Below, one piece after another: positions 11,107-49,811 of a stretch of 64,000 nt of DNA. Below the pieces are notes generated by a model. It was not told the DNA's origin. It made no database searches and worked only from the letters and a program-made list of their open reading frames with translations. Origin of the DNA: a bacterium (GTDB lineage Bacteria > Ratteibacteria > UBA8468 > B48-G9 > JAFGKM01); NCBI GenBank assembly GCA_026414725.1, contig JAOAIL010000002.1:24223-88222 (forward strand), in the 5' to 3' direction. The position numbers were made by a program, and so were the translations under genes. Within the stretch, counting starts at the first letter, position 1, and each line of letters opens with the position of its first letter.

Positions 11107-13119
11107 ATGGAAAAGGTAAAATATCATCTTCGTTTTCAGATTATTCCAAACAAGAATGTTAAGGCAGATACAAGAGCATTACTTGAATTCTGTCTTAAAC
11201 ACAGAATAGAGGAGGTGGTTCTATTTTTTGCAGGAGAAGAATGGAACAACGGTCTTCTTTCTAAGAAAGAAGAGGATATGTGGTTTGAAACAGTCAGGAC
11301 AGCAAAAGAACTACTTGAAGAAAAGGGTATAAAGGTCAGTTTAAATCCCTGGATGACTGTACTTCCCGCCGATAGAGGTAGAAGATTTCCTCCAGATAGA
11401 AGATTTAAGCCGATGGTATCTCCGTATGGAGAAAAGAGTAAAGCAACTGCTTCTTTTGCCGATAAAAATTGGCAGGAGTATATATACAATCTTTATGCAA
11501 GATTTTCATCTCTCGGGTTTCGTGTTATATGGATAGAAGATGATTTTAGGTATCACAATCATTCTCCTCTTACCTGGGGAGGTGGATTTGAAAAAGAAAT
11601 AATAGAGAGATTCAATAAGAAAATTAGGAAAGAAGTAAACAGGGAAGAAATTTTAAAAAATGTCCTGAAACCTGGCTCTCCGCATCCATGGCGTGGGAAA
11701 TGGATGGAGGTATGGAGGGAGGTGCAGTTAGAAGTTGCATCCAAGATAACAGAGGCGGTCAAAAAGAATGCAAAAGAGACAACCTGTATGGGACTTATGA
11801 GTTCCCATCCATCTTTTCATAGTATTGAAGGGAGGAGATGGTATGATCTCTTTAATATACTTACCATAGAAAATAAAGTAGTTCATAGACCTCATTTTGC
11901 ACCATACTGTGAATGTTTAGGGAAGGATAAAGTTTATTCTATTATGATGCTCTCTATCCAGAAGAAATTAAGACCCGCTTATTGTGAAGTTGAGCCTGAG
12001 ATAGAGAATTTTTCTTTTACTACATGGAACAAATCTGATACGCAAACATGGACAGATATGGCACTAGCAATGTTTTTTGGTTCTGATGCACTACTGTTGA
12101 ACCTTTTCCCTTTTGTAGGCAATCGTGTTGATGAAGAAAAAGGTATCGGAGAACTTCTTGATAGAAGTTATAAGTCACTCTCCTGGATTTCTAATAAATT
12201 CTCTAAGGAAGCTAACTTATTTGGAGTGGGAATACCGTGGAAGGAAGATGCAGCGGAAAGAGTAAAAACAGAAAAAGGAACTTCCCTGGATGGATTAGTA
12301 GTAGACCCCTTACCCGGATGGAAGTTTTTGTTATCTTTGGGTATCCCTGCTTCTCCTGATAGGCAAAAAGTAAATCTCATATTTGGTAATAACGCTTGGA
12401 CATTTGAAGAAGATGAGATAAAAGAAATGTTAAAGGGAGGAATGCTTCTTGATGGAGAAAGTGCAAGGATATTGTGTAAAAGAGGTTTTGAAAAATATAT
12501 CGGTGTTAAATATCTAAAGACGGTATCAAGAGAAGAATCTACTTATTCCCTTGAAGTTGTAAAAAATCGTAAAAGTGGAGTAAGAGAAGGTATCTATAAT
12601 ACAGTGAACCTCCTACCTGAATTTAATATATTTATCCCATTAGAAGATACAATCATCTGGACAGAAGTTATTACTCCAGAAAAGAAGATACTGGGACCAG
12701 GGATTACCCTCTATCAAAATTCTCTCGGAGGAAGAGTAGCAGTAGTAACATATGAACCTATTTTTTATGGAGGGTTTAACTTTTATAGACAGATTGTAGT
12801 ACAAAACATCATAAAATACCTTTATAAAGAAAATATCCCGTTCCCCATGATTTTAAATGGACCTTATCTTTTCCCAATGTTTTTTCACAGCGAAGATGGA
12901 GATAAACTGGTTGTGTTGAATGGTCATACAGATTCTATGAATGTAAAAATTGAAATTCCATGGAATAAGGTTCCTTCAACTACTACTTTTCTTCAACCAC
13001 TTAAAAATCCATACGATGATAAACTATTAAAAGAAAAAGATGGTAAAAAGTGTTTCTATAAAAATTCTTTATTACTGCCATATATGGGCTACTTGGTAGT
13101 AGAATTTAAAGAAAAATAA
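11107..13119 (+). CDS. uncharacterised 670-aa protein (possible TIM-barrel glycoside-hydrolase-like fold)
   Basis: Long clean ORF with good RBS spacing after the AMMECR1 gene. No recognisable motif. Coding status is firm, function unknown. Confidence 0.5.
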   Translation: MEKVKYHLRFQIIPNKNVKADTRALLEFCLKHRIEEVVLFFAGEEWNNGLLSKKEEDMWFETVRTAKELLEEKGIKVSLNPWMTVLPADRGRRFPPDRRFKPMVSPYGEKSKATASFADKNWQEYIYNLYARFSSLGFRVIWIEDDFRYHNHSPLTWGGGFEKEIIERFNKKIRKEVNREEILKNVLKPGSPHPWRGKWMEVWREVQLEVASKITEAVKKNAKETTCMGLMSSHPSFHSIEGRRWYDLFNILTIENKVVHRPHFAPYCECLGKDKVYSIMMLSIQKKLRPAYCEVEPEIENFSFTTWNKSDTQTWTDMALAMFFGSDALLLNLFPFVGNRVDEEKGIGELLDRSYKSLSWISNKFSKEANLFGVGIPWKEDAAERVKTEKGTSLDGLVVDPLPGWKFLLSLGIPASPDRQKVNLIFGNNAWTFEEDEIKEMLKGGMLLDGESARILCKRGFEKYIGVKYLKTVSREESTYSLEVVKNRKSGVREGIYNTVNLLPEFNIFIPLEDTIIWTEVITPEKKILGPGITLYQNSLGGRVAVVTYEPIFYGGFNFYRQIVVQNIIKYLYKENIPFPMILNGPYLFPMFFHSEDGDKLVVLNGHTDSMNVKIEIPWNKVPSTTTFLQPLKNPYDDKLLKEKDGKKCFYKNSLLLPYMGYLVVEFKEK

Positions 13120-13129
13120 AGGAGGACAG

Positions 13130-13621
13130 ATGAACTCTATATGGAAGAATGAAAAAAGGGTAGAGATAATGCTTGCTGGACTTGTGTTAATACTTGGGAT
13201 AGTACTTCTTATATCTGAGGTTCTAAAACCAAGTATTAAAATTGCTTCTGTTGATATGAACCGTATAGTGAACGAACATCCTGCAATGGAAGAAGCAGTT
13301 AAAACTTTTCACAAGGAACTTTCTAATCTGCAAAAAACAGTAGATAAAATGAATGAGAAAGAAAAAATAAAACAACAGCAGAGGATACAACAAGAGATTT
13401 CACAGATTGCTATAAGGTTACAGAATGAAGCAATGGCGAAAATAACAAAGGATATTGAAAATTTAGCTAAAAAACAAGGATATTCATATGTAGTGGATAA
13501 GGGCGCGGTTATTGTTGGTGGAAAAGATATAACAGAAGATATCCTTAACGCTATAAGGAAGAATAAAACAGAGGAAAAGAAAGCAGAAGTCCCGGATATG
13601 CCAATGATACCTGTGAAATAG
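13130..13621 (+). CDS. skp: periplasmic chaperone Skp/OmpH family
   Basis: 163 aa. N-terminal signal anchor, IASVDMNRIVNE start typical of OmpH, long coiled-coil Lys/Gln-rich arm. Confidence 0.7.
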   Translation: MNSIWKNEKRVEIMLAGLVLILGIVLLISEVLKPSIKIASVDMNRIVNEHPAMEEAVKTFHKELSNLQKTVDKMNEKEKIKQQQRIQQEISQIAIRLQNEAMAKITKDIENLAKKQGYSYVVDKGAVIVGGKDITEDILNAIRKNKTEEKKAEVPDMPMIPVK

Positions 13622-14418: not shown

Positions 14419-15466
14419 TGTAAGAGATACTATAGAAAGCAAACTACATGAAATAACAGAGGAATATGAAAAACTCCTTAAATTAATTACTTCTGGTAGC
14501 GCTACATCAGATGAATTTAAAGATGCTGTAAAAAAATTAAAAGAATTAGAGGTAATTGTCAATCTTCAAAGAGAAAAGGAAAGAATAGAAAAAAAATTAC
14601 AGGATGCTATAGAGATTCTCAATACAGATGATTCTGAAATCAGAAAACTTGCAGAAGATGAAAAGGAAGAACTTCTAATAGAAAAAAATAGAATAGATAC
14701 AGAAATAAAAAGGTTTTTATTTCCAGAAAATCCAGAAGATTATAAAAATGCAATAATGGAACTTAGAGCAGGGGTTGGTGGAGAAGAAGCATCTCTTTTT
14801 GTAAAAGACCTTCTAAGAATGTATACAAGATTCTGTGAAAAAAAGGGGTATGAAATAGAGATATTGAGTACAAGTCGTTCTGAAAAAGGCGGTTTTAAAG
14901 AGATTATTTTCCTTATTAAGGGTAAAGGTGCTTACAGTGATTTTAAATATGAAGGTGGAGTTCACAGAGTTCAGAGAATACCTAAAACAGAAAGTTATGG
15001 AAGAATTCATACATCTGCTGCCACAGTTGCTGTATTTCCTGAAATGGAAGAAAAAGAACTCAGGATAGACCCGGGTGATATTAAAATAGATACATTCAGG
15101 TCTTCAGGAGCAGGTGGACAGAAAGTAAATAAAACGTCATCAGCAGTAAGAATTACACATATCCCAACAGGTATTGTTGTAAACTGTCAAGATGAAAGGT
15201 CACAGATACAAAATAAAGTTAAAGCACTTAAGATTTTAAGAGCGCGCCTTCAAAATCTATATAAAACAGAAATGAAAAAGAAAATTGATACCGAAAGAAA
15301 AGAGTGCGTTAAAACAGGTGAGAGAAGTGAAAAAATAAGAACTTACAATTTCCCTCAGAATCGGCTTACAGACCATAGAATTGGACTTACATTATATAAC
15401 CTTGATAGAATAATGGAAGGAGAAATGGAAGAATTAATAGAAACATTAAGGAGGCAATTGCAATGA
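14405..15466 (+). CDS. prfA: peptide chain release factor 1
   Basis: 353 aa. GGQ motif ([11 protein letters not shown]). RF1-type codon-recognition tripeptide region ([20 protein letters not shown]). Followed downstream by prmC. Confidence 0.9.
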
Positions 15467-17316
15467 AAAAAATATCTATTTATATAATATTTTTTAGTAT
15501 GTGCCTTTCTCTATTATATGCCGACTATACAGACTTCATAAAAGAAGGAATATTACTACTTAACCAGAAAAGAATATCAGAATCTATAAAAGCATTTGAA
15601 AAAGCCAGGGATATGAAACCATCAGACCCTTATGCATATTTTTATCTGGGAGAGGCGTATTATGCAATAGGGAAGAAGAAAGAAGCACTTGACAATTATA
15701 ATAAAGCCGTTGAGATAGATAATACCAATCCTGATTTCTATTATTCTATTGCTAATTTTTATTTATCAGAAGGAAACTATGAAGAGGCGATTAAATCACT
15801 GGATAAAGTAATAGAAATTGCCCCAGCATCAATAAAGGGTAAATCAGCGAGAAAGTTAAAAGAAGAAATCCAGAGACAACTAGAAAATAGAGAGATGTTG
15901 CAAAAATGGGCTAAGATGGAGGAAGAAATAAAAAAACAGAAAGAAGAAAAAAAGGAAGAACAAAAACAAGAACCATTTCCAGGTCCTCCAGGAGCAGCAG
16001 TATTACCTCCTGAATTCACTGGAATGATACCTGGAGAGGCAACTGGAGTAAAGGAAGAAAAACTTCCTGTAGAACAACTTGTCAAAAGGATAAAATTTGG
16101 TACAGCAACTACAAGACAAAATGCATCAACACTCTTACTTGCTTATGAACAATCAGAACTGTTAAAGGTGGTTCCTGACATAATAGAAATTATAAAACAG
16201 AATAATGAACCAGCTATAAGAAAAAATCTCATACTGGCACTCGGAAAAACAGAAACACCTGATTCTATTGATACTATACTCAAAATTATTCAGGATAAAA
16301 ACGAACTCTATGATATAAAAATTACTGCCCTTGATAGTATTTCCAAAATCAAATCCGAAAGTGTAATTGTCACCTTAAGAAATACATTAAAATCAATACT
16401 GGATAAAAGGGAAAACGAAAGGATTGAAGCACAAAAAAATATCAAGGATATAACATCAAAATTAGAAACACTTGAAGCACAAAAAATTGCTCTGAATATG
16501 CAGTTAACACAGGAAGAACAAAAAAGAAATGAAATTATGCAAAAATTACAGATGAGTGACCTTCCTTCTGAATTCGCAGTACCTCCAGGCATACCTCAAC
16601 CAGGAGGTAATAAATCTTTAAGCATTCAGGAAATACAAAAAATAAGGAATGAAATGCTTAAAACAGAAACCTCTATAAACAAAAAAAGAGAAGACCTTGC
16701 TAAAACAGACCAGCAAATTATAGAGTTACAACAACAAAAAAGCAGATATGAAGCGTTATTGCAAGCAAGAGAACAGAAAAGGACAGATATTGTTGTGACA
16801 ACCAGTTCTACTCCAGTTACTGCTTTAGCCCCAAGAACTGGCGTTCCAGTTGGTCCTCCTGGTTTTGAAACAGGAATGCCTACAGAAATAGCAAGGTACG
16901 AAGAAACTCCTGAAGACAAAAATGAAGTTGTATTTGCACTAAAACTTATAAGAACCCTCGGTAAGATGAGGGATAGACAAGGATTATCCATTATTAAGAA
17001 AGGATGGGAAGAATTTGGTGTAGAAAATGAGCAAATATATTATTTGCTGACTCTCGCACGTTTAGGTGACTTTACTGGAATACAGACACTTATTAGCCGA
17101 CTCGGCCAGGACTATCCTAATGGAGAAGTAGAACTTAGAGAAGAGATAGACCTCCGTAAAGGTATTATAGAGATATTGGGTGAATATATTACTCAAAAAC
17201 CAGATCCACAACTGCAGGGTTTAATTGAATTTTTAAGTGAAGAAGGTATTTATCCTGATATAAAAGAAATGGCTTCAAGTGTGCTTGTATCCATTACAAA
17301 AAATCCAGGTAAGTAA
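15463..17316 (+). CDS. TPR / HEAT-repeat protein with central coiled coil and Pro/Gly-rich segments
   Basis: 617 aa. Signal peptide, TPR motifs at the N-terminus, long Lys/Glu coiled coil, collagen-like PGPPG patches, C-terminal HEAT/PBS-lyase-like repeats. Confidence 0.6.
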
Positions 17317-38960: not shown

Positions 38961-39255
38961 AATTCTCGGCAAAAAATATAAGATACAGTCAGATATTGCA
39001 TCTGAAGAGATTATAAAGATGCATAGCGAAATTGTGAAACGATTAAAGGACCTCTCTTCTGAATATCCAACATTAGATAAAATAGATATTCTTGTTCTGT
39101 ATGTAATTGAATTAAAAAAAGAGATAATTGACAAAGAAAAACAGATTCAAAAGGGAAAGAACAAACTGGAAAGTATAAGTAAAAAAATTTCCCTGATTGA
39201 AGAAAAAATTAAAGAGAATATAAAAAATCTTGACAGATTTAGGAAGGTATTATAA
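38941..39255 (+). CDS. zapA: cell division protein ZapA-like
   Basis: 104 aa. VEILGKKYKIQSD N-terminal beta-region plus C-terminal coiled coil. Conserved position downstream of pheT. Confidence 0.5.
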   Translation: MQVEKLEILGKKYKIQSDIASEEIIKMHSEIVKRLKDLSSEYPTLDKIDILVLYVIELKKEIIDKEKQIQKGKNKLESISKKISLIEEKIKENIKNLDRFRKVL

Positions 39256-39291
39256 AATTTGAATTCTGAGATGTTATATAGAATAAATAAT

Positions 39292-39363
39292 TGCGGGGTG
39301 GAGCAGTGGTAGCTCGCCAGGCCCATAACCTGGAGGTCGACCGTTCAAATCGGTCCCCCGCAA
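39292..39363 (+). tRNA. tRNA-Met (CAU), initiator-like
   Basis: Near-identity to the bacterial tRNA-fMet scaffold (TGCGGGGTGGAGCAGTGGTAGCTCG...GGTCGACCGTTCAAATCGGTCCCCCGCAA). Anticodon loop CCCATAA (C33). Weak U1:A72 end pair. No encoded CCA. Confidence 0.75.
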
Positions 39364-39394
39364 CTATAAAGGTGTTAATTTAAAAGGAGTAATT

Positions 39395-41119
39395 GTGATA
39401 AAGGGTAGTAGAAAAGCACTATCTATTGATATCGGAAGTACTAAAATCAGAGTGTGCGATTTGGAAATCTCCAGCCATGGACCAATTATCTCCTATTACG
39501 ATGAAATGGACATCCCTGTTTCTCCTGCAGAAAGAGAAGAATTTATAAGTACTGAAGCAAAAAACTTTATAAAAAATCAACATGCAAAATCATTTTATGT
39601 ATCACTACCTGGAAGAGGTGTACTTGTTAGAAGTTTAACTGTACCTAAAGTTCCATTAAAAAAACTGAAAGATATACTTAAGTATGAAGTGCAACAACAG
39701 ATACCTTTCCCTCTGGAAATGGTAGAGTGGAAATTTCAAATTATAAGTGAAACCGCACAGAGCTATAATGTTTTATTAGGGGCAGTCAAGAAAGATATTA
39801 TAAGTGATTTCCTATCCAGGTTGATTACCTTTGGTATAGACCCTTTATTTCTCGATGTAGACCACTTTGCTCTCCTTAATATTTTTATGTCCTCACCAAA
39901 ATTTTCTCCCGAGAAATGTCAAGCAATTCTTGAGGTGGGTGCCACTTCTTCTAACTTTATTATTATTTACCGCGAAAAAATGCTCATACGTTCACTTACT
40001 ACATCAGGAGATACAATAACAAATGCTATATCTGAATCAGAATCAATCTCTTATGCTGAAGCAGAAGGGAAAAAAATCACAGGCAATATACAAATTCCTG
40101 GGGTTAAAACAAGTATTGAAAGTTTACATACAGAAATACAAAATTCTATTGACTACTGGAGATTTACTCAGAAAGGGCCTGAATTGGAAGAACTATATCT
40201 ATGCGGCAGAGGTGTTCTCTTAAAAGGATTTAAGGACTTCCTTCAGGAAAAATCTAGAATACCCACATTTTACTTTAATGTACTTTCTGGTATAGAGGTT
40301 GATGAAGAATATACTAAACTTCGCTCTTCAGAAACAGAACTTACTATCTTATTAGGCATTGCTTTAAGAAAAATCAGGAAAACAACGGTAAATATTGACC
40401 TGCTTCCTGAAGAAGTAGAAAGGGTTCGTGAATTTAGATATAACCGACCTTATATTTATCTATCCGCTGTTATGGCAGGTCTCATAGCAATTACTCCAAC
40501 TCTTTTTTTCAACCAAGAGAAATCAATGTTAAAAGGTATACTTACCGAAATGGATGTTTCTCTAAAACAGTATGAAAAGTATAAACCTGAGGTAGATAAA
40601 TTAAAAGGAGAGATAGCAGGAATAAAAGGACAGGTAGAAATTATAGAAAAAATTATTAATGAAAAGGATATCTGGTTAAGACGTATTGTAACACTGGGTA
40701 GTGCTCTTCCAAATAGTAGAATATATATCGTTTCTTTTATACCTGGACAGGGAGCAGGTGCACCTGCATCAACGCCACAGGAAACACCAGCTGCACCACC
40801 GGGACCGCAACCGGGACCACCCACACCACCTGGAGTTCCTCCACCAGGACCTCCTTCTGCACCAGCGCCTGTTCCAGAAGCAGTCGCGCGGAGTGCGGAA
40901 CAACAGCCAGCAGTTGATATAAAAATAGAAGAAGAGAAAGTATTTACTTTAAATGGAGAAGTAATAGTAACAGATATAAAGACAGCATTCAGTGATTTTA
41001 GAACATTTGTGACTAAACTGTCTGAACTTGATTTTATAAAATCGGTTAATATAAGTTCCTGTGAAGTTAGTCAAACAAAAGATAAACTTCAATTTTCTTT
41101 ACTGGTAGAAATCAAATGA
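39395..41119 (+). CDS. type IV pilus / T2SS inner-membrane assembly protein: PilM-like actin-fold ATPase domain fused to a PilN-like TM/periplasmic domain (GspL-equivalent)
   Basis: 574 aa. N-terminus LSIDIGSTKIRVCDLE (PilM/FtsA-type). Then NIDLLPEEVERVREF with a TM helix (PilN-type). A 55-aa Pro-rich linker follows, then the periplasmic domain. Confidence 0.65.
   Translation: MIKGSRKALSIDIGSTKIRVCDLEISSHGPIISYYDEMDIPVSPAEREEFISTEAKNFIKNQHAKSFYVSLPGRGVLVRSLTVPKVPLKKLKDILKYEVQQQIPFPLEMVEWKFQIISETAQSYNVLLGAVKKDIISDFLSRLITFGIDPLFLDVDHFALLNIFMSSPKFSPEKCQAILEVGATSSNFIIIYREKMLIRSLTTSGDTITNAISESESISYAEAEGKKITGNIQIPGVKTSIESLHTEIQNSIDYWRFTQKGPELEELYLCGRGVLLKGFKDFLQEKSRIPTFYFNVLSGIEVDEEYTKLRSSETELTILLGIALRKIRKTTVNIDLLPEEVERVREFRYNRPYIYLSAVMAGLIAITPTLFFNQEKSMLKGILTEMDVSLKQYEKYKPEVDKLKGEIAGIKGQVEIIEKIINEKDIWLRRIVTLGSALPNSRIYIVSFIPGQGAGAPASTPQETPAAPPGPQPGPPTPPGVPPPGPPSAPAPVPEAVARSAEQQPAVDIKIEEEKVFTLNGEVIVTDIKTAFSDFRTFVTKLSELDFIKSVNISSCEVSQTKDKLQFSLLVEIK
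40741..40920 (+). repeat. GC-rich low-complexity segment encoding a Pro/Ala/Gly linker (PGPQPGPPTPPGVPPPGPPSAPAPVP)
   Basis: Compositional island inside the PilM-N ORF. It is also the source of the spurious antisense ORF 40456..40824. Confidence 0.6.
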
Positions 41120-41871
41120 AAAAGATAAAAAGTTTTTTAAAAAAATTTTCGCTTTTACTTTCTCTAATAGTAGTGATAGGCATAATGGTAGCAGGATATT
41201 TTTTGACAAAAAAGACACGGATGGAGATAAAGAAATTAGAAGAAGAAATAAAAACCAAATATTCTCAGATAAATGCCTATGAAACAGGAAAGGAAGAAGC
41301 ACCCTCTCCTGAACTGATAGCAAAACTAACAAAAGAAAAAACATATCTTGAAAAGAAGTTCAATTTCTTTTTAAACAATTTTTCCACTACATATCCTGTG
41401 GTCCCAGAGTTTACACTTTATCCATCAATTGAATACAAAGAATTTCTTTATTTCTCCCAGGACCGTCTTTATAAAAAGGCAGAGAAGAGAAATGTTTTAT
41501 TGCCCGGTTCTCTCGGCTTTCAAACAACAGGACTTGTTCCTCCTGAACAGATTCCAAAATTAGCATTACAGTTTGAAGTAGTAAAGGATTTAATAGGACT
41601 TATCATTGATGCAGGAGTAACCTATGTAGAAAATATATCCCCGGGAGAACCTCAACAGGTAGCATTCTATCAAGTATTACCTATAAAATTAGGAATAAAA
41701 GGTACAAGTAATGAAGTTATGAGATTCCTTAAATATATCGAAAATCCTTCTTCTTATTTCTTATTAAAAAATTTTTCTGTAACAAAAGAAAACGAAGGTT
41801 TATTTAAAATATCAGCAGGACTTAACGCTGTAATTATAAAGAAACAAGGAACAAAAGAATCTGAAGGATAA
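41116..41871 (+). CDS. PilO/GspM-like bitopic inner-membrane protein
   Basis: 251 aa. Short cytoplasmic N-terminus, one TM, coiled coil, then a periplasmic alpha/beta domain. Position immediately after the PilM-N gene. Start overlaps (ATGA). Confidence 0.5.
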   Translation: MKKIKSFLKKFSLLLSLIVVIGIMVAGYFLTKKTRMEIKKLEEEIKTKYSQINAYETGKEEAPSPELIAKLTKEKTYLEKKFNFFLNNFSTTYPVVPEFTLYPSIEYKEFLYFSQDRLYKKAEKRNVLLPGSLGFQTTGLVPPEQIPKLALQFEVVKDLIGLIIDAGVTYVENISPGEPQQVAFYQVLPIKLGIKGTSNEVMRFLKYIENPSSYFLLKNFSVTKENEGLFKISAGLNAVIIKKQGTKESEG

Positions 41872-41875
41872 GAGA

Positions 41876-43426
41876 ATGGAAGAAAAGAAAAGAAAAGCTG
41901 ATATTATAAGAGAAGAAAAGAAAAAACAATTGCTGAATTTTATTGAGAAAAAGAAAACAAAAATTATGCCTTCTGAAAAGACAATACCCCCTATTCTCAA
42001 TAGTAATCCAGAATCAATACCTCCAGTCAATAAAGAAGCGATTCCTAAAGAAATAGAGAAAACACATATGGAAGGGAGCAACAGACGGAAAAAGAGAAGA
42101 GATAAACTTCAAGAAATAAAAGAGATAAGAGAAGAGATAAAAAAGAAACGTGCATTAGCCATTCTGGAAAAGAAACAGAAAAAAGACGAAGAAAGAAAAA
42201 AAAGAAAGGAAGAGATACAACAGAAAAAATTAGAGGCACTTAAAAAGAGAGAAGAGAGTAGGCAAAAAGAAGAAAGAAAGAAAAGCACCTCCACTTTAAC
42301 TCCTTCTGTAACAAATTCCAATCAAACAACAAGGAAAGAGGAACTTCTTGAATTTATCAAGAGAAGAAAACTTCTTTATGAGCAGAATAAGGGACGAAAG
42401 GAAATATTAAAACAGGCAGAAGAGAAGAAAGAAATTCCAGGGTATATAAAAGATTTAGAGACACCTTTACCTGCTGCTATTACTGCAAAAATTTCTGCTC
42501 TTTCCAGAGAAGCAAAGCAGACAGAAAAAGAAGCACAGAATAATCTCTCTTTTGCATCAGGAAATATAAAGCATTTTATCTCTTCATCTATAAGAAAGAA
42601 GAAAGAAACAAAGGTTGAAAAACCTGCTCCTTCTATAAATGATAAAAAAACCACAGTTAAATATAAAGAACCATTCCTTTTAATACCATTTATAAGAAGA
42701 AATATATTTAAATTTGTTTTTCTTATCCTCTTAATAGCATGGATCTATGAGATATTCTTTTTTATAGAGAGATTTCAGGACCCACAGAAACGTCTGTCAG
42801 ATATAGTCGGAGAAGACGTATCTAAAGAAAAAACAGCTCCTATTTCTCGTACTGAGGAGAAAATCCCTTTAACTGAAGAGGAGTTTAAGTTTGCATTAAA
42901 GAAAGAAAAGATAGATATAGAAGGAAAAAGAGACCCATTTTCACCAGGACTCTTAACTATGCAGGTTTTTGAAAAACCAGAGATTACACGTATATCTCTC
43001 GCTCCAAAACCATCTGTAATATCTATATTAAGGCCTTCAAAGGTTGTCAGTGTAATTAAGGAAGAGAAGAAAATGGAGGCAGAAAAATTAAGTTCTATCT
43101 CTAAACCACAACCCCCATCTTATAAACCTATTCTAAAAGATAAGGAGTCCCAGATACAACCTATTCTTAGAGATAAGGGACCATCTCAAATACAACCGGT
43201 AGAAAAACCGGCGGAATCTCTTATTATGCCAGAAAAAAGATGTGACTTAACATACAGAGGACGGTTAGTGATAGAAGGTGTTGAATATCTGTTTATAGAA
43301 GGTAAAAATAAAACATACAGAGTGACAATTGGCGATGTGGTTGAGGGCTTCAGAATCATAAGAAAAGAAAAGGATAAACTCTATCTTTCAAAAGAAGGAA
43401 TTATATACGAAATACCCGTTGATTGA
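41876..43426 (+). CDS. PilP/GspC-like protein with ~270-aa Lys/Glu/Arg-rich cytoplasmic N-terminal extension
   Basis: 516 aa. Highly charged low-complexity N-terminal half, a single TM (FKFVFLILLIAWIYEIFFFI), a periplasmic linker, and a C-terminal small beta-domain (YRVTIGDVVEGFRIIRKEKDKLYL) resembling PilP/GspC HR domains. Confidence 0.45.
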   Translation: MEEKKRKADIIREEKKKQLLNFIEKKKTKIMPSEKTIPPILNSNPESIPPVNKEAIPKEIEKTHMEGSNRRKKRRDKLQEIKEIREEIKKKRALAILEKKQKKDEERKKRKEEIQQKKLEALKKREESRQKEERKKSTSTLTPSVTNSNQTTRKEELLEFIKRRKLLYEQNKGRKEILKQAEEKKEIPGYIKDLETPLPAAITAKISALSREAKQTEKEAQNNLSFASGNIKHFISSSIRKKKETKVEKPAPSINDKKTTVKYKEPFLLIPFIRRNIFKFVFLILLIAWIYEIFFFIERFQDPQKRLSDIVGEDVSKEKTAPISRTEEKIPLTEEEFKFALKKEKIDIEGKRDPFSPGLLTMQVFEKPEITRISLAPKPSVISILRPSKVVSVIKEEKKMEAEKLSSISKPQPPSYKPILKDKESQIQPILRDKGPSQIQPVEKPAESLIMPEKRCDLTYRGRLVIEGVEYLFIEGKNKTYRVTIGDVVEGFRIIRKEKDKLYLSKEGIIYEIPVD

Positions 43427-43484
43427 TAAGCAAAAACTTGATTTTAATAATTATAAGAGGTATTATATTTAACAGGGGGAAAAG

Positions 43485-45371
43485 ATGAAAAAAAGAGGTA
43501 TACGATCTAAACTGGTGTTGATGATATTTATATTCACTTTTACCGCCATAGGGGTTTTACATGCTCAACAGACACGGTCTGATATTGACCTTATGTATAT
43601 GAAAGCCCTAAATGCTTATTATGCAAAGAATTATGCAGAAGCCATTTCTATCTTCAAATCCATACAGGGAATTAATCCTTCATACAGACAAAATCAAATA
43701 AACCGGTACATAAAGGTGGCTGAAACACAGTTAGGTAAAAGTGGTGTTAAACAGACATTTAATCCAATAGAAGGAAAAGATACAGAGGTAGATGTACTTA
43801 AAGAAGACGAGTTTGAAACACTCGCTATGGCATCTCAAAAAGCCCTTCTTGATGCTTATGAATATCTACAGGATACAGAGAAAAAACATCAGATACCATC
43901 TTTTGAAATGACCGAACCAAGGTCTACAATATCTATGGCTAAGCAGGCATATGAGCAAAAACAATTTTCAGAAGCAATCCGTCTTGCAAATAAGGCAAGA
44001 TTACAAGTAGAACAGATTGTTCAGAAAAGGGAAGATGAAGAAAAACCAATCCTCGGTGAAATAGGCAAAACTCCTATTACACTGAATCTTAATAATGCTG
44101 ACCTGGAACAGACACTAAAGTTGATATATGACCTTACAGGAGCCAACATTATAATCAGCAAGGGTATAACAGGAAGGGTTACAATAAATGTTCAGGACCT
44201 ACCTTTACAAAAGGTGCTTGACCTTATATGCGAGGCAAACAAACTTAAATATTTAGAAGAAGATAAAGTAATAAAGATAATGAATGAAGATGAATATAAT
44301 GCAAGGACAAAAGTACTAAAAGAAAAAAGCAGGCGAGTATTCAATATCTTTTATGGAGATGCTTCACTGATTGCAAAATCGCTGAGAGAAACATTCAAGA
44401 TGGAATCGATAGTACATGACCCGAGAACCAACTCCATTCTTGTTGATGTTTCTAATCCAACTTTACTTCAGCAGATACAGGATGTTATATCTTCTCTTGA
44501 TATGCCCATATCCCAGGTACTTCTTGAAGCAAAAATTATTGAAATAGCACTCTCTGGAACAAATACATTTTCCATTGACTGGCTTATAAGTTCAAGATTA
44601 GTAGAAGCAATAGATGCAACACTGACGGGTCCTAAGTTTGGCATAACTCCTACTTATACACCTGGTATGTCATCAACTTTACCTGACGATACCTTCTCTT
44701 TTGGACTATCAAATAAGGACGTTAACACTCTCATAAGTGCACTGGCTTCACAGGGCGAAGTTAAACTTGTTCAGGCACCTAAGATTATGTGTCTTAATGG
44801 AACTACTGCAATCATAAGAGTGATTCAGAATTATCCTTATATTATACCGGAATATGAAACAACTACAACTGGTACCACCACTACCACAACAACCAGTGGA
44901 GGAACCATTAACGTGTATGAGGAAACAGTTGGAACAGAATTTGAAGTCACTCCTATCATACAGAGAAACAGAACTGTTTTCCTTTCTATGAATATCTATG
45001 ACTCACGTCTTGTAGAGACACGAAAACTTCAGGCGGTGGCAGCAGGACTTAACTACTCAACAGAATTACCCATAATATCAACCAGAGAAACAACTCAAAA
45101 TGTTACTGTATTTGATGGTCAGACACTTGTAATAGGCGGGATGATACAGCAGAGAAAAGAAAAGAAAGAAACAGGAGTACCTTTCCTCAGAAAAATTCCT
45201 ATACTCGGGTATCTGTTTAAAAAACCGACTTATACCACTACTAACAGTGAACTACTATTATTCCTTACTCCACATATTGTAACTACCTATCAAGAAGCAG
45301 AAACACTGACCAAACCTGATTTAGAAAAATCGGAAAAGGAGATAAAACCAGGTCTGCTTGAAAAGTTCTGA
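43485..45371 (+). CDS. secretin (PilQ-like, secretin A)
   Basis: 628 aa. Signal peptide, TPR-like N-terminal helices, secretin_N-type domain (PITLNLNNADLEQTLKLIYDLTGANII), Thr-rich linker, and C-terminal secretin domain (VIGGMIQQRKEKKETGVPFLRKIPILGYLFKK...LLLFLTPHIV). Confidence 0.75.
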   Translation: MKKRGIRSKLVLMIFIFTFTAIGVLHAQQTRSDIDLMYMKALNAYYAKNYAEAISIFKSIQGINPSYRQNQINRYIKVAETQLGKSGVKQTFNPIEGKDTEVDVLKEDEFETLAMASQKALLDAYEYLQDTEKKHQIPSFEMTEPRSTISMAKQAYEQKQFSEAIRLANKARLQVEQIVQKREDEEKPILGEIGKTPITLNLNNADLEQTLKLIYDLTGANIIISKGITGRVTINVQDLPLQKVLDLICEANKLKYLEEDKVIKIMNEDEYNARTKVLKEKSRRVFNIFYGDASLIAKSLRETFKMESIVHDPRTNSILVDVSNPTLLQQIQDVISSLDMPISQVLLEAKIIEIALSGTNTFSIDWLISSRLVEAIDATLTGPKFGITPTYTPGMSSTLPDDTFSFGLSNKDVNTLISALASQGEVKLVQAPKIMCLNGTTAIIRVIQNYPYIIPEYETTTTGTTTTTTTSGGTINVYEETVGTEFEVTPIIQRNRTVFLSMNIYDSRLVETRKLQAVAAGLNYSTELPIISTRETTQNVTVFDGQTLVIGGMIQQRKEKKETGVPFLRKIPILGYLFKKPTYTTTNSELLLFLTPHIVTTYQEAETLTKPDLEKSEKEIKPGLLEKF

Positions 45372-45451
45372 TGTCTATGTTTGATGCTGTTTCATATAAG
45401 AGAAAAAATGGGTATAATAAAACTAAGAAAGAGAAAATATGGAGGGTACCA

Positions 45452-46510
45452 ATGAACAGAAAAATATTAAACATTCTTATTATTACAGGACTATGTATAT
45501 CATCTTTTTCCCCTATTTTTGCACAGACATCCTCCACAACTTCTAGAGTAAGTACCGGTTCCAGTTCAAGAACCACTTCTACAAGCGAATGGAGGAGTGA
45601 TGAGGAAGATAAAGAAAAACGACAGGGTGTAATAAGGGATTTTATGGCATCTGTATTAGGAGGAATGTTAAGACATCCTGACCCTACGGTTAGAAAACAA
45701 GCAATCCAGTCAATTTCTTTGAGTATGATAGGTGAAGAAGGGACAGGTGGCGGACAGGAAGGAGGAATAAGAAGTTTACTTGCTATATCTAAAGAAGGAG
45801 GTGGAAGCGAAACTGAAGGTTCAACAGGTATGGGAGGGGTAGTATTTATACCTGACCTTTATGTATTACTATCTGACCCAGACCCTGAAGTAAGGGATAT
45901 TGCCTCTGTGGGACTTGATATGATATTTGGAACCGATTCTACACTATTAAAATATTTGCAGGACAACGACCCGCTTGTAAGAAAGTATGCTACCCAAATT
46001 TTTGCAAGAAAAAGAATCTCCACCTCTGAAGAGGGGAGAAGAAGTAGTGAAGAAGCACTGGCAGAAGTGAGGGACCTTCTTGCTATCAGAACTATGCTTG
46101 TTCGTCTTAAATATGAGAAAGAGCCAGCAGTAAAAAAAGCAATCCAGGATACACTTGAGTGGTACGTAAACTATGGTGGTGACACAAGAAACAGGGGTGG
46201 AAGAGAATATGAACAGAATTTATTCGGTGTAAGTGCCTCTCTTTCACTGGATTATTTGAATGACCCAGACCCTGAAATCAGAAAACAGGCAATTAAAACC
46301 ATAGGACTAAGGGATTCTTCCGATGACATACTAATAAAACTTTTAGAACGTCTCAGAGTGGAAAAAGATGAATCAGTAAGACAGGAAATCCTTACAGCAC
46401 TTGATAACATCCGAACGAAACAATCATATGACCGCGAAGGTAGAGGCGGTGGTGGCATTGGTGGTGGTATTGGTGGTGGTATTGGCGGTGGTGGATTACC
46501 ACTTCCTTAA
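45452..46510 (+). CDS. exported HEAT-repeat (PBS-lyase-type) protein with Ser/Thr-rich N-region and GGGI-repeat tail
   Basis: Signal peptide MNRKILNILIITGLCISSFSPIFAQ after a GGAGGG RBS. Repeated DPDPxVR(K/D) HEAT-like motifs. C-terminus GRGGGGIGGGIGGGIGGGGLPLP. Confidence 0.55.
   Translation: MNRKILNILIITGLCISSFSPIFAQTSSTTSRVSTGSSSRTTSTSEWRSDEEDKEKRQGVIRDFMASVLGGMLRHPDPTVRKQAIQSISLSMIGEEGTGGGQEGGIRSLLAISKEGGGSETEGSTGMGGVVFIPDLYVLLSDPDPEVRDIASVGLDMIFGTDSTLLKYLQDNDPLVRKYATQIFARKRISTSEEGRRSSEEALAEVRDLLAIRTMLVRLKYEKEPAVKKAIQDTLEWYVNYGGDTRNRGGREYEQNLFGVSASLSLDYLNDPDPEIRKQAIKTIGLRDSSDDILIKLLERLRVEKDESVRQEILTALDNIRTKQSYDREGRGGGGIGGGIGGGIGGGGLPLP
46444..46494 (+). repeat. 12-nt tandem repeat (GGTGGTGGTATT, 3 full copies plus degenerate flanking copies) encoding (GGGI)n
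   Basis: Direct reading of 46441-46500. Confidence 0.6.
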
Positions 46511-46521
46511 AATTTCTTCCT

Positions 46522-48120
46522 ATGAAAAAATGTCCATTTATTATAATAGTAGGGATATTTTGTACATTTTTAATAGTAGAATCTCCTGCAAAAGACCTTA
46601 TTCTTAACCTCAATAATGTAGATATTAAAACATTTATAAAATTTGTAGGGGACTTTACTAAAGAAAATTATGTTATAGACCCAAATGTAAAAGGAACTAT
46701 AACTGTATATGCTAATAAACCTGTACCTGCAGAAGAGATAGATAAAATTTTTAAAACCATTCTGAATCTTTATGGATATTCAGTTATTAAAAAAGATTCT
46801 CTCTCCATTATAATCCCTTCAACAGAAGCAAGGATAAGAATGCGTGAAATCAATATAGGAGATATTCCTTCTGATAAAATGGAAGATTTTATCATCCAGA
46901 TAATTCCTCTTAAACACTATCCTCCTGATATTCTTGCCCAGATACTTTCCCCTTATATCACAAAAAATGGACAGATTACAGTAGATAGTAGAACCAACTC
47001 TCTCGTTATATCTGATACAGGTGCAAACATCGCTAAAATTCAGGATATCGTAAAAAAGATAGACATTCCTTCTCCCCCGGGCAGAGATGTTTTAAAAATT
47101 TACCGTCTTGAGAATGTTGATGCTGAAGAAGTTGCAAAAATCTTAACACAGCTCCTTACCAGACCAAAACAAACCATCAGAAGGGGCGAGGCACCTCCTG
47201 TTCAACCATCTGTAGTAGCAGCAAAAGCAACTAACTCTCTTATTGTTAATGCTGACCCTGATGACTTTCCTAATATAGAAAAAATAATAAAGGAACTTGA
47301 TGTGCTAACAAATCAGGTTCTTATAGAAGCACTTATTGCAGAGGTATCCTACGAAACAACAAAAAGAATGGGGATAGAATGGGCTGCAACAGACACCTTT
47401 GATGACGAACGATTTACAGGAGGAGCAGGAACAAATTTTGGATATATCCAATCATATGCTACTACAGGTATTGCTCCTGAGGGACTTTCAATAGGTGTAT
47501 ATAAAGGTACTCTTACATATCCACTGGATATAGGAGCACTTATTAACCTTTACTCAAAAGAAGGAGAGTTCAATATCCTCTCCACACCTCAGATAGTTAC
47601 CAGTGATAACCAGGAAGCAGTTATAAACGTAAGTGAAAATATACCTTATCTAAAGGAGACACGATTTATTCAGAGCACTACGGGTTCCACAGGGGACATA
47701 ATAAAAAGTTATGATTATAAGGATGTTGGAATTACACTGAAAATTACCCCCCAGATAAGTCAGGATAAATATGTCCGATTGAAGATATCGCAAGAAGTAA
47801 CAAAAGTCATTGAAGGTGGTCTGGAAGAAGCACCAACAACAGCCAAAAGGTCAGTAGATACAACACTAATAGTTCCCAATAAAAAAACCGTGGTTTTAGG
47901 TGGACTGGTAAGAGATGATACAGAAAATACTGTAAAAAAGGTTCCTTTCTTCGGAGATATTCCTTTACTTGGGAAGTTGTTCCGATATAATTCTAAAAAA
48001 TCCACAAAAACCAATCTTCTTATCTTTATTACACCAAACATTATAACAACCTTTGAGGAAGCAGAGGCAATTAAAAAAGAAAAAGAACAGAGTATTATTG
48101 GAGATAAAATTAAAAAATAA
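46522..48120 (+). CDS. gspD: type II secretion system secretin GspD-like (secretin B)
   Basis: 532 aa. Signal peptide, N0 domain (ILNLNNVDIKTFIKFVGDFTKENYVIDPNVKGTITVY), N1/N2 repeats, canonical secretin domain (VVLGGLVRDDTENTVKKVPFFGDIPLLGKLFRYNSKKSTKTNLLIFITPNII). Confidence 0.85.
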   Translation: MKKCPFIIIVGIFCTFLIVESPAKDLILNLNNVDIKTFIKFVGDFTKENYVIDPNVKGTITVYANKPVPAEEIDKIFKTILNLYGYSVIKKDSLSIIIPSTEARIRMREINIGDIPSDKMEDFIIQIIPLKHYPPDILAQILSPYITKNGQITVDSRTNSLVISDTGANIAKIQDIVKKIDIPSPPGRDVLKIYRLENVDAEEVAKILTQLLTRPKQTIRRGEAPPVQPSVVAAKATNSLIVNADPDDFPNIEKIIKELDVLTNQVLIEALIAEVSYETTKRMGIEWAATDTFDDERFTGGAGTNFGYIQSYATTGIAPEGLSIGVYKGTLTYPLDIGALINLYSKEGEFNILSTPQIVTSDNQEAVINVSENIPYLKETRFIQSTTGSTGDIIKSYDYKDVGITLKITPQISQDKYVRLKISQEVTKVIEGGLEEAPTTAKRSVDTTLIVPNKKTVVLGGLVRDDTENTVKKVPFFGDIPLLGKLFRYNSKKSTKTNLLIFITPNIITTFEEAEAIKKEKEQSIIGDKIKK

Positions 48121-48121
48121 A

Positions 48122-49651
48122 ATGGAACGTAAGTCAGTCCTCTGGATAGAAAATCCTGAAGAGATGGTTGACCCAGAGTTATTATCTTTTTTCCCTTTCT
48201 CCTTTTTAAAAAACAACTGTATTCTCCCATTAAAGAATGATAGAGGCGAAATACTTATAGCCACAGATGACCTTTTAAAGATAGATATAAGTGAAATAAA
48301 AACACGACTTAACAGGGATATAAAAATTGCTCTTGCCTCAACAGAAACAATACAAAAATGCCTTGATAAATATTATTACCATCCAACTACATCCCAGAAG
48401 GTAATAGATGACCTCAGTTCTGAAGAGATGACACATCTTGAAGAAGATATTGATATTGAAAGTATGAATCTCCTTGACCTTGCCAACAAAGCACCTATCA
48501 TCCGTCTGGTCAATCAGATTTTATATAAAGCCATATCTATGCGCGCAAGTGATGTACATATACAGATTGGAGAATCTGTCCTTAAAGTAAGATATAGAAT
48601 TGATGGTATCTTACATGATATCTTCATTCTACCGAGGAAATTCCATCCTGCTATAGTAACAAGAATAAAAATAATATCCAATCTGGACATTGCAGAAAAG
48701 AGAATCCCCCAGGATGGAAGAACCTCTATAAAAGTAGATAGTAAGAAAATAGATATCCGTGTTTCCATCATTCCTACATTCTTTGGAGAGTCAGTTGTCC
48801 TTCGGTTGCTCGATAGAAGCACATTTCTTTTTACTCTTAATGAGCTGGGATTTTCTGAAGACACATATAAAAAATTCAATGAACTAATACACTTAGACCA
48901 TGGGATAATTCTACTAACAGGACCTACAGGAAGTGGAAAAACAACAACTTTATATGCAGCACTATCCAAGATAAACAATCCAGATATAAATATTATTACA
49001 TTAGAAGACCCTGTTGAATACAATATAGAAGGCATAAATCAGATACAGGTTAATCCAAAAGTAGGACTTACTTTTGCCAATGGATTGCGATCTATATTAA
49101 GACACGACCCTAATATCATAATGGTGGGAGAAATAAGAGACAGAGAAACAGCAGAAATGGCCATTCAGGCATCTCTCACGGGACACCTTGTTTTCAGTAC
49201 TCTTCATACAAATGATTCAACAAGTGCTATTATTAGATTGATTGATATGGGTATAGAACCTTATCTCATTGCATCCTCACTGGTAGGAGTAATGGCACAA
49301 CGACTTGTCCGTCTTAACTGTCCCTGGTGCTCTGAAGAAACACAACCACCTGTAAAAGAACTACAACAAATTTTTTCAGAAAGAGATGTTGTTGCTAAGA
49401 TAAAATATATCTCTGGTAAGGGATGTAAAACGTGTCTGAATGAAGGTTATTACGGAAGGAAGGGGATTTTTGAACTTCTTATTATTGATGAAGAAATACG
49501 GGGGCTTATATCAGAAAAAATCTCTGCTACTGAACTTAAAAAAACCGCCTTAAAAAAAGGACTTGTGACATTAAGAATGGATGGGGCATTAAAAATAAAG
49601 GAAGGATTAACAACTGTATCTGAAGTTTTAAGAGTTACTCAAGAAGTATAA
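48122..49651 (+). CDS. gspE: type II secretion / type IV pilus assembly ATPase (GspE/PilB family)
   Basis: Walker A GPTGSGKTT, Asp box, Walker B and His box, C-terminal tetracysteine (CPWC...CKTC). ATG at 48122 directly after the gspD stop is preferred over ORF-track 48053. Confidence 0.9.
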   Translation: MERKSVLWIENPEEMVDPELLSFFPFSFLKNNCILPLKNDRGEILIATDDLLKIDISEIKTRLNRDIKIALASTETIQKCLDKYYYHPTTSQKVIDDLSSEEMTHLEEDIDIESMNLLDLANKAPIIRLVNQILYKAISMRASDVHIQIGESVLKVRYRIDGILHDIFILPRKFHPAIVTRIKIISNLDIAEKRIPQDGRTSIKVDSKKIDIRVSIIPTFFGESVVLRLLDRSTFLFTLNELGFSEDTYKKFNELIHLDHGIILLTGPTGSGKTTTLYAALSKINNPDINIITLEDPVEYNIEGINQIQVNPKVGLTFANGLRSILRHDPNIIMVGEIRDRETAEMAIQASLTGHLVFSTLHTNDSTSAIIRLIDMGIEPYLIASSLVGVMAQRLVRLNCPWCSEETQPPVKELQQIFSERDVVAKIKYISGKGCKTCLNEGYYGRKGIFELLIIDEEIRGLISEKISATELKKTALKKGLVTLRMDGALKIKEGLTTVSEVLRVTQEV

Positions 49652-49714
49652 ATTTTTTCTTTCATTAAAAATATATTAAAATAATTCTCTAAATCCAGAA
49701 TTTAAATATTAGTA

Positions 49715-49785
49715 TGCCCGGTGGTGTAATGGTAACACACCGGCCTTTGGAGCCGAGGTTCGAGGTTCAAATCCTCGCCGGGCAG
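49715..49785 (+). tRNA. tRNA-Gln (UUG)
   Basis: Cloverleaf with U1:A72 typical of bacterial tRNA-Gln, anticodon loop CTTTGGA, T-loop TTCAAAT. No encoded CCA. Confidence 0.8.
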
Positions 49786-49811
49786 TAATCATAAATGTAC
49801 AGTGACAAGGA

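Follow-up and report, generated by a model that had tools for sequence, protein, structure and literature searches.

Two secretins, a HEAT-repeat protein and a type II secretion motor in one ancient gene cluster of the candidate phylum Ratteibacteria

Introduction

Secretin machines are usually viewed as the combination of one motor, one scaffold and one homo-oligomeric channel. The described systems that come closest to the locus analysed here are the type II secretion system (T2SS; Gsp/Pul/Eps/Xcp), the PilMNOPQ complex of type IV pili (T4P) and the Amuc_1098-Amuc_1102 cluster of Akkermansia muciniphila. The locus itself is a seven-gene operon at positions 39395-49651 of a 64,000-nucleotide stretch of DNA (hereafter the window: GenBank assembly GCA_026414725.1, contig JAOAIL010000002.1, positions 24,223 to 88,222, forward strand) from a bacterium of the Ratteibacteria. 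A TPR block fused to the N-terminus of the secretin is a hallmark of the Akkermansia PilQ, Amuc_1098 (PMC4960237), and what the Amuc_1101/1100 cluster does in Akkermansia has yet to be proven (PMC5332112, PMC4960237). Ratteibacteria are a phylum-level lineage of the PVC group in the Genome Taxonomy Database (GTDB) and are often annotated as Omnitrophica; the "T2SS-like locus" that lies beside giant genes in Omnitrophota is a different system, and Ratteibacteria are without those genes (10.1101/2023.11.21.568195).

Here we show that the seven genes form the promoter-proximal half of a type-IV-filament cluster of about 15 genes, which is ancient and conserved across the candidate phylum Ratteibacteria. 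This two-secretin, HEAT-containing super-operon is a real, phylum-wide and undescribed variant of known T2SS/T4P systems: in the literature we found no description of the cluster or of an operon with two different secretins.

Results

All seven genes run in the same direction on the + strand and are real by open reading frame (ORF) calls and profile searches (Pfam and NCBIfam for domains, ARAGORN for tRNAs). In order, they encode a PilM-N fusion with a GspL-like layout (39395..41119), a PilO/GspM-like bitopic protein akin to Amuc_1100 (41116..41871), a bitopic GspC/PilP-like protein that we call X (41876..43426), the PilQ-like secretin A (43485..45371), a putatively exported HEAT-repeat protein (45452..46510), secretin B, a T2SS GspD (46522..48120), and a GspE-type ATPase (48122..49651). 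The seven co-oriented genes and the domain calls of the original prediction were thereby confirmed by Pfam and NCBIfam and, for the third gene, by structure.

The same gene order extends well beyond the window's clade. Relatives whose secretin A is 43-62% identical to that of the window share the 5' synteny pheS-pheT-zapA-tRNA-Met-PilM-N, keep the order from PilM-N to GspE that had been proposed for a synteny check, and then continue unbroken from gspE into gspF...polA, giving as the ancestral order tRNA-Met, PilM-N, PilO-like, X, secretin A, HEAT, GspD, GspE, GspF, GspG, H, I, J, K, GspL-like, GspM-like and polA. The downstream genes are those of a T2SS: GspG matches T2SSG (4.3e-39), three minor pseudopilins carry N_methyl, GspK matches T2SSK_1st (1.7e-20), the GspL-like protein after gspK (416-427 aa) has weak matches to GspL_C (1.4e-4), PilN (5e-4) and T2SSL (4e-3), and the GspM-like protein (about 167 aa, no family match) is named from its position and size only. 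In relatives at 68% identity or more (L005 and L006), the operon stops at gspE and is followed by tRNA-Gln, an NTP-transferase gene and prs, as in the window.

A GspF alignment searched against species-representative genomes gave 35 loci, and a tblastn table over all loci separated three arrangement groups: a long arrangement (L001-L004, L007-L010, L016, L018, L021-L031, L033, L034, L040 and L041), a short arrangement (the window, L005 and L006), and orphan gspF-M-polA loci (L011-L013, L015, L017, L020 and L044) preceded by grpE, a GHMP kinase gene and spoVG. GspF is 41-44% identical between lineages. In the sister genome GCA_050950705.1 the short operon lies on contig 1 and gspF-M-polA on contig 7, so that GspF, GspG and the pseudopilins H-K are contiguous with gspE in long-arrangement relatives and sit on another contig in this genome. 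The concern raised earlier, that the genes might be pieces of an ordinary split operon with the remainder elsewhere, thus applies to the gsp half. No A24 prepilin peptidase (GspO/PilD) was found among the window ORFs scanned or the genes called in the fetched loci, and pilB, pilT, pilC and a major pilin gene were likewise absent from the window and from all fetched loci.

A single inversion in the ancestor of the window's clade, with breakpoints between gspE and gspF and between spoVG and tRNA-Gln, moved gspF-M next to spoVG. First, a search of metagenomes with the SpoVG of the lineage gave 80 loci, 50 of which have spoVG followed by the NTP-transferase gene and prs, with tRNA-Gln between spoVG and the NTP-transferase gene in all six that were scanned. 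Second, the 12 loci nearest to the window's clade have gspF after spoVG, and then gspG where the locus extends far enough; no tRNA follows spoVG in L052, the one scanned of these 12. Third, the short-arrangement loci (window, L005, L006) are the only ones with tRNA-Gln after gspE, and in the window the derived junction (49652..49811, + strand) holds tRNA-Gln(TTG) at 49715-49785 (ARAGORN) in the ancestral place of gspF. Finally, in a long-arrangement genome the spoVG locus and the cluster share one contig of 291,852 bp, the former (134.9-147.2 kb) in + orientation and the latter (273.1-291.9 kb) reversed; since the two are opposite in orientation, one inversion, of about 140 kb, would create both derived junctions. 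The window itself appears to be part of one replichore with strong gene-strand bias, as indicated by a cumulative GC skew that climbs near-monotonically from 0.04 to 3.34 and by the placement of nearly all ORFs of at least 150 aa on the + strand, and this fits the opposite orientation of the two breakpoints on the relative's 291.9-kb contig.

The operon of the window thus seems to be without platform protein and pilins because the inversion moved the gspF-M half away. The absence from the window, as originally described, was confirmed: motif scan, tblastn and Pfam on all large ORFs revealed no GspF/PilC, pseudopilin, GspK/L/M, A24 peptidase or second ATPase in the 64 kb, the motif scan no prepilin motif, and tblastn no further secretin besides A and B and no ATPase of this kind other than GspE. 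The conclusion once drawn from it, a machine devoid of platform protein and pilins, did not survive, as deeper relatives run on into gspF-M and the relocated half of the window's clade is still in the genome. The locus illustrates cleanly how one inversion can cut an operon while both halves remain in the genome.

The gspH-like minor pseudopilin gene is interrupted in L017 (about 7362-7855) and L012 (about 8453-8952), where the run GGC TTT TTT TTT ATC TGA (a T9 tract) places a stop 19 aa past the prepilin motif and reading on in the frame of the intact L044 orthologue takes an extra T or a -1 slip; early stops occur as well in L034 (about 11684), L003 (about 17891) and L029 (about 11755). Because the T9 tract is common to two different metagenome-assembled genomes (MAGs) and early stops recur in the other three, programmed slippage or phase variation is suggested, a homopolymer error being possible. 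Three tandem prepilin genes (about 220-237 aa, N-terminus MK(R/K)KGFTLIELLVVIAIIAILA, of the PVC DUF1559 type) lie a few kb 3' of the cluster past polA in one subclade (L025 18197-20400, L029 18815-21000, L041 15459-17140), and their products are candidate extra substrates of the machine. The SpoVG of the lineage (L017 5285-5656, L044 9511-9897) contains an inserted zinc-ribbon (CxxC...CxxC; Pfam SpoVG plus Zn_Ribbon_1/DZR), which is unusual for SpoVG. Records of the cluster or of X also appear under unrelated taxon labels ("Vermiphilus sp." for L020 and L034, "TA06" for L029, "Elusimicrobia" for P0146, "WOR-3" for P0252, "Pacearchaeota" and "Aenigmarchaeota" for P0254 and P0259), which points to mislabelled or contaminated MAG bins.

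Both secretins are complete. The Secretin domain covers profile positions 1-168 and 2-168 of 169 in the two proteins, bearing out the claim of two distinct true secretins in one operon. Secretin B (Pfam N0 6.6e-21, Secretin_N 1.7e-27 in two stretches, Secretin 2e-49) has N0, two to three N domains and a barrel, and its 446 bits with TIGR02517 type_II_gspD exceed the cut-off of 351, which classes it by profile as a bona fide GspD. Secretin A (Pfam Secretin 5.9e-43, with Secretin_N, STN and N0; identical to NCBI protein MCX8082072.1, locus tag N3D17_01545, on a 185-kb contig) is lineage-specific, and its scores with PilQ TIGR02515 (192.7 bits, cut-off 284), with GspD (187 bits) and with the HofQ DNA-uptake porin (E 1.9e-42) all lie below the NCBIfam cut-offs. 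Of the two assignments made originally, GspD-like for B therefore stood in full; A is indeed PilQ-like, but misses the curated cut-offs.

In its AF2 model, secretin A comprises a signal peptide, two helical-hairpin (TPR-like) blocks (31-83 and 107-186), N0/STN, one N domain, a barrel with complete double-walled strands and a C-terminal helix. A profile search gives weak TPR matches at the N-terminus, and Pfam, NCBIfam and the model agree that there is no AMIN domain, the helical N-terminus standing in its place. The best Foldseek match is the competence PilQ of V. cholerae (6w6m, E 3.7e-21), with T2SS secretins close behind in a shallow ranking. Searches with secretin A returned 92 relatives at 37% identity or more, the next match having only 29%, and those that are named are labelled Candidatus Ratteibacteria or Omnitrophica. 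Identity to relatives is 43-83% for secretin A and 48-90% for secretin B, and both are kept in all of them.

The two are not tandem duplicates, for which the original prediction had set identity above 70%: they are 24% identical, and in a neighbour-joining (NJ) tree of 409 shared columns A is monophyletic in 200/200 and B in 199/200 bootstraps, with A and B as sisters in 1/200. Secretin B is nearest to GspD-type references (mean distance 1.51, versus 1.91 to A), and secretin A is about equidistant from all, with a slight pull to AMIN-type PilQ; the deep nodes are weak (secretin A with AMIN-PilQ 42/200, secretin B with GspD 71/200) and the references are biased to secretin A matches.

The PilM-N protein consists of an actin-like PilM domain (residues 11-326), a transmembrane (TM) segment, a coiled coil, a Pro-rich linker and a small C-terminal domain, and it is from this topology that we infer the PilN portion. 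PilM_2 (1e-25) clears the Pfam cut-off, T2SSL matches at 1.6e-5, and the best NCBIfam family is Amuc_1101_fam (221 bits, E 3e-65; cut-off 650), ahead of TIGR01175 pilM (110 bits; cut-off 133), which marks PilM-N, as judged from its profile scores, as a distant relative of Akkermansia Amuc_1101. Its orthologues in relatives are 44-77% identical, and it aligns collinearly with the downstream GspL-like family across 386 columns (hhalign, E 8.3e-5). The PilO-like protein scores 19.8 bits with Pfam PilO (9.2e-4), below the cut-off of 22, and matches NCBIfam Amuc_1100_fam at 5.8e-8; its orthologues in relatives bear a precomputed PF28028 Amuc_1100 annotation, the family has no sequence match in the PDB, and its relation to the GspM-like protein is marginal.

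Protein X has no sequence-family match in Pfam or NCBIfam. By structure, however, its C-terminal domain of 60 aa has the GspC/PilP HR fold, which bears out the PilP/GspC-like reading of the third gene and makes X, like PilP, an HR-domain protein encoded ahead of a secretin. In an alignment of ten orthologues X is laid out as a Lys/Glu-rich N-terminus, a TM segment, an invariant periplasmic IEGKRDPFSPGxLTM motif and a conserved C-terminal block, and a homologue search with the C-terminus found 15 proteins, all internal to the lineage, and none in outgroups. The cytoplasmic N-terminus (window 41876-42700; also L001, L006, L007 and L008) is Lys/Glu/Arg-rich and repeat-expanding, with repeated blocks in L001 and L008, and the whole protein ranges from 418 to 1022 aa.

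The HEAT protein (Pfam HEAT 1.3e-17, HEAT_2 1.8e-17) has a signal peptide that ends in FAQ ahead of T, Ser/Thr-rich linkers, four to five "DPDPxVR" repeats and a Gly-rich tail. An alignment of 17 sequences shows a conserved N-terminal hydrophobic leader and an invariant Q-T, and the protein is probably periplasmic, judging from these features. Its gene lies between the two secretin genes in every locus that covers the region, so that the position first described is kept in all relatives, its export being read from the conserved leader sequence. The ORF opens at 45371; as all 16 orthologues start at M28, the gene most likely starts there, at 45452, and the gap to secretin A would therefore be about 80 nt, not 0. 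The ATPase (Pfam T2SSE 5.6e-135, MshEN 1.1e-11) has TIGR02533 as its best NCBIfam family (623.2 bits; cut-off 630.25), with PilB at 554 bits (cut-off 676), and its translation contains an MshEN N-domain, the Walker A motif GPTGSGKTT and a tetracysteine CPWC...CKTC. Its ORF is open from 48053, the start being most likely the ATG at 48122.

A tRNA-Met(CAT) gene (39292..39364, + strand, ARAGORN) lies immediately 5' of the operon, and a tRNA-Met gene precedes that of PilM-N in the window and in the relatives' loci scanned (n=8, including L001, L003, L005, L006, L007 and L008). The best promoter-like site (11/12, 39230-39258) is just 5' of this tRNA, a consensus match only and not enriched over shuffles, and the same promoter/terminator scan, overall not enriched over shuffles, found no + strand terminator-like site within the operon. 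The PilO-like gene starts 4 nt inside the end of the PilM-N gene, and spacing throughout is by overlaps or gaps of 1-80 nt; the gaps of 0-60 nt noted previously are thus right as to tight spacing, but not for the secretin A-HEAT gap after correction of the start. The genes are most likely co-expressed. As stated at the outset, tRNA-Gln and glycan genes follow directly, the latter with sugar-nucleotide genes. An origin as a mobile element or island was rejected, the flanks being housekeeping genes with conserved synteny (pheST-zapA-tRNA-Met) and the G+C content even.

The remaining large ORFs of the window are housekeeping genes only (Pfam). Upstream, a 670-aa ORF (11107-13119) without a Pfam match at 1e-6 lies directly 5' of an OmpH/Skp gene (13130-13621) and, because BamA holds that position in many bacteria, may encode a BamA-like protein of very divergent sequence. 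The gene between prfA (RF-1) and prmC (15463-17316) encodes the second HEAT-containing protein in the window, of 617 aa, in which TPR repeats are combined with a HEAT_2 block. A 636-aa ORF (7140-9050) matches no Pfam family at 1e-6 and is flanked by a fucose-isomerase-like gene and the RNase PH gene.

Discussion

The cluster encodes two secretins, two proteins of the GspL/PilM-N type and two of the PilO/GspM type, along with one HR protein, one ATPase, one platform protein and one pseudopilin set. With moderate confidence we favour the view that it specifies a PVC-type PilMNOPQ-like column beside, and co-expressed with, a T2SS, that is, two parallel envelope-spanning columns; that L-type and M-type scaffold proteins each occur twice speaks for two columns and against one. 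In the first column, PilM-N, the PilO-like protein, the bitopic HR protein X and the PilQ-like secretin A would form an alignment complex of the PilMNOPQ kind, the TPR-like N-terminus of secretin A possibly acting as a built-in pilotin, and this column would most likely serve a pilus-like fibre or an uptake function with prepilins encoded elsewhere. The second column would be the T2SS proper (GspD, GspE, GspF, pseudopilins G-K, GspL and GspM), in which GspE and GspF would assemble a pseudopilus beneath GspD and so expel folded proteins. The periplasmic HEAT alpha-solenoid might be an accessory that places or stabilises one or both secretins in a pilotin- or scaffold-like role.

Several points weigh against this assignment. 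Two secretins are matched by a single ATPase, a single platform and a single pseudopilin set, so that a separate motor for the first column is assumed; the T2SS half is without a GspC of its own, and the sole HR-domain protein, placed in the first column, could just as well work with GspD. In all genomes examined the two modules have remained fused despite deep divergence, and the inversion breakpoint does not fall at the module boundary. The PilO-like assignment of gene 2 and the GspM-like assignment are both weak, and the role offered for the HEAT protein is conjectural. The GspF of the window's own MAG is taken to be MCX8082805.1, whose accession lies 733 after that of secretin A in the same kind of "MAG: bacterium" record, an adjacency from which we infer one genome.

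The same observations give some credit to one composite machine, in which both secretins would share the GspE/GspF motor and the pseudopilin set, with X and the HEAT protein as connectors. Either the machine would have a choice of two outer-membrane exits, of which one would be for secretion and the other for a fibre or for uptake, or the two secretins would assemble in mixed or stacked form. We rate this composite machine as a tentative and rather unlikely alternative. A single type IV filament machine is used for both piliation and protein secretion in other bacteria; here, about 15 genes include one ATPase, one platform and one pseudopilin set, one HR-domain protein faces two N0-bearing secretins, the HEAT gene sits between the secretin genes in all covering loci with tight gene spacing, and the modules are never apart in 15 distinct complete secretin A loci. 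On the other side, the duplicate L-type and M-type scaffolds suggest two inner-membrane assemblies, and secretins that are 24% identical and fall in clades that are not sisters make a mixed ring unlikely; all secretin rings known to us are homo-oligomers. Moreover, pilMNOPQ operons are normally separate from the ATPase and pilin genes (in P. aeruginosa and others), and their absence from the locus therefore says little. In its most explicit form, a single nanomachine with one motor and two secretins joined by paralogous L/M scaffolds, a shared HR connector and a HEAT adaptor, the proposal seems to us unlikely, and to our knowledge a one-motor, two-secretin architecture is undescribed for T2SS or T4P. 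If true, the shared motor would make this the first two-exit type IV filament machine and a natural system for how scaffold proteins choose a secretin.

Within the two-column arrangement, the first column need not be a pilus machine, and it might instead be a competence-type DNA-uptake channel, or a structural or adhesive envelope complex of the Akkermansia type, co-transcribed with the T2SS. The structure of secretin A is closest to that of the competence pilus secretin of V. cholerae, and this and its HofQ match point that way, as does the resemblance of genes 1 and 2 to Amuc_1101 and Amuc_1100. We nevertheless consider it improbable, given that the PilQ, GspD and HofQ matches of secretin A are all below cut-off with similar GspD and PilQ scores, that the Foldseek ranking among secretin classes is shallow, and that Pfam on the large ORFs revealed no ComEA/ComEC-type genes in the window. 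That one secretin is degenerate, a recent duplicate, or repurposed as a pilotin or gate without a channel is largely refuted and very improbable: secretin A does miss all curated subfamily cut-offs and has one N domain besides N0, yet the full-length Secretin domains of both, conserved in all relatives, and the complete barrel strands in the model of A led us to reject degeneracy, and the low identity and non-sister placement to reject a recent tandem duplication.

Whichever way the modules are coupled, a whole candidate phylum, the Ratteibacteria, carries two secretins, two scaffold sets, a HEAT protein and a single motor in one cluster.

Comparison with known systems

Compared with the T2SS, secretin B passes the GspD equivalog threshold and the ancestral arrangement follows the canonical D-to-M order. 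By contrast, no gspC precedes gspD, its place being taken by the gene for the putatively exported HEAT protein; the sole HR-domain protein is encoded three genes upstream, without a PDZ domain and with a long Lys/Glu-rich cytoplasmic arm; the operon of the window's clade is cut between gspE and gspF; and a prepilin peptidase is not seen in the window or the fetched loci.

The first genes match PilMNOPQ of P. aeruginosa, Myxococcus and Thermus in gene order and roles, with a predicted actin-like PilM, putative bitopic PilN- and PilO-like proteins and an HR protein directly before a secretin with N0 and one N domain, and the module is without an ATPase, platform or pilin of its own, as are the classical operons. 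It differs in the fusion of PilM with PilN, as in the GspL architecture, in that the HR protein is TM-anchored and not a lipoprotein, in that helical TPR-like blocks replace the AMIN domains of the secretin, and in that the module is fused to a T2SS operon. The TPR pilotins of type IV filament secretins (PilF/PilW/Tgl and TadD) resemble the HEAT protein, without membership being implied, as periplasmic alpha-solenoid repeat proteins encoded beside a secretin; the HEAT protein has HEAT and not TPR repeats and no lipobox, its signal peptide ending in AQ ahead of T.

Akkermansia muciniphila is likewise a member of the PVC group, and the best NCBIfam families of genes 1 and 2 are Amuc_1101 and Amuc_1100. 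Both its cluster and that of the window encode a PilM-like protein of about 600 aa and a secretin whose N-terminal region is TPR-like (PMC4960237). The scores fall well short of the equivalog cut-offs (221 vs 650, 32.5 vs 180 and 79 vs 750 bits), with the Amuc_1098 model secretin A does no better than secretin B (79 vs 94 bits), and a counterpart of Amuc_1102 is absent from the locus. In neither PMC4960237 nor PMC5332112 is a second secretin, a HEAT gene or a T2SS gene described within the Akkermansia cluster. By their profile scores, genes 1, 2 and 4 are distant homologues, not members, of the Amuc_1101, Amuc_1100 and Amuc_1098 families, and Amuc_1098-1102 is their nearest described relative. 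The cluster of the Ratteibacteria thereby links the enigmatic "pili-like" genes of the Akkermansia Amuc_1100/1101 type to PilMNOPQ logic, with an HR protein that sequence methods had missed.

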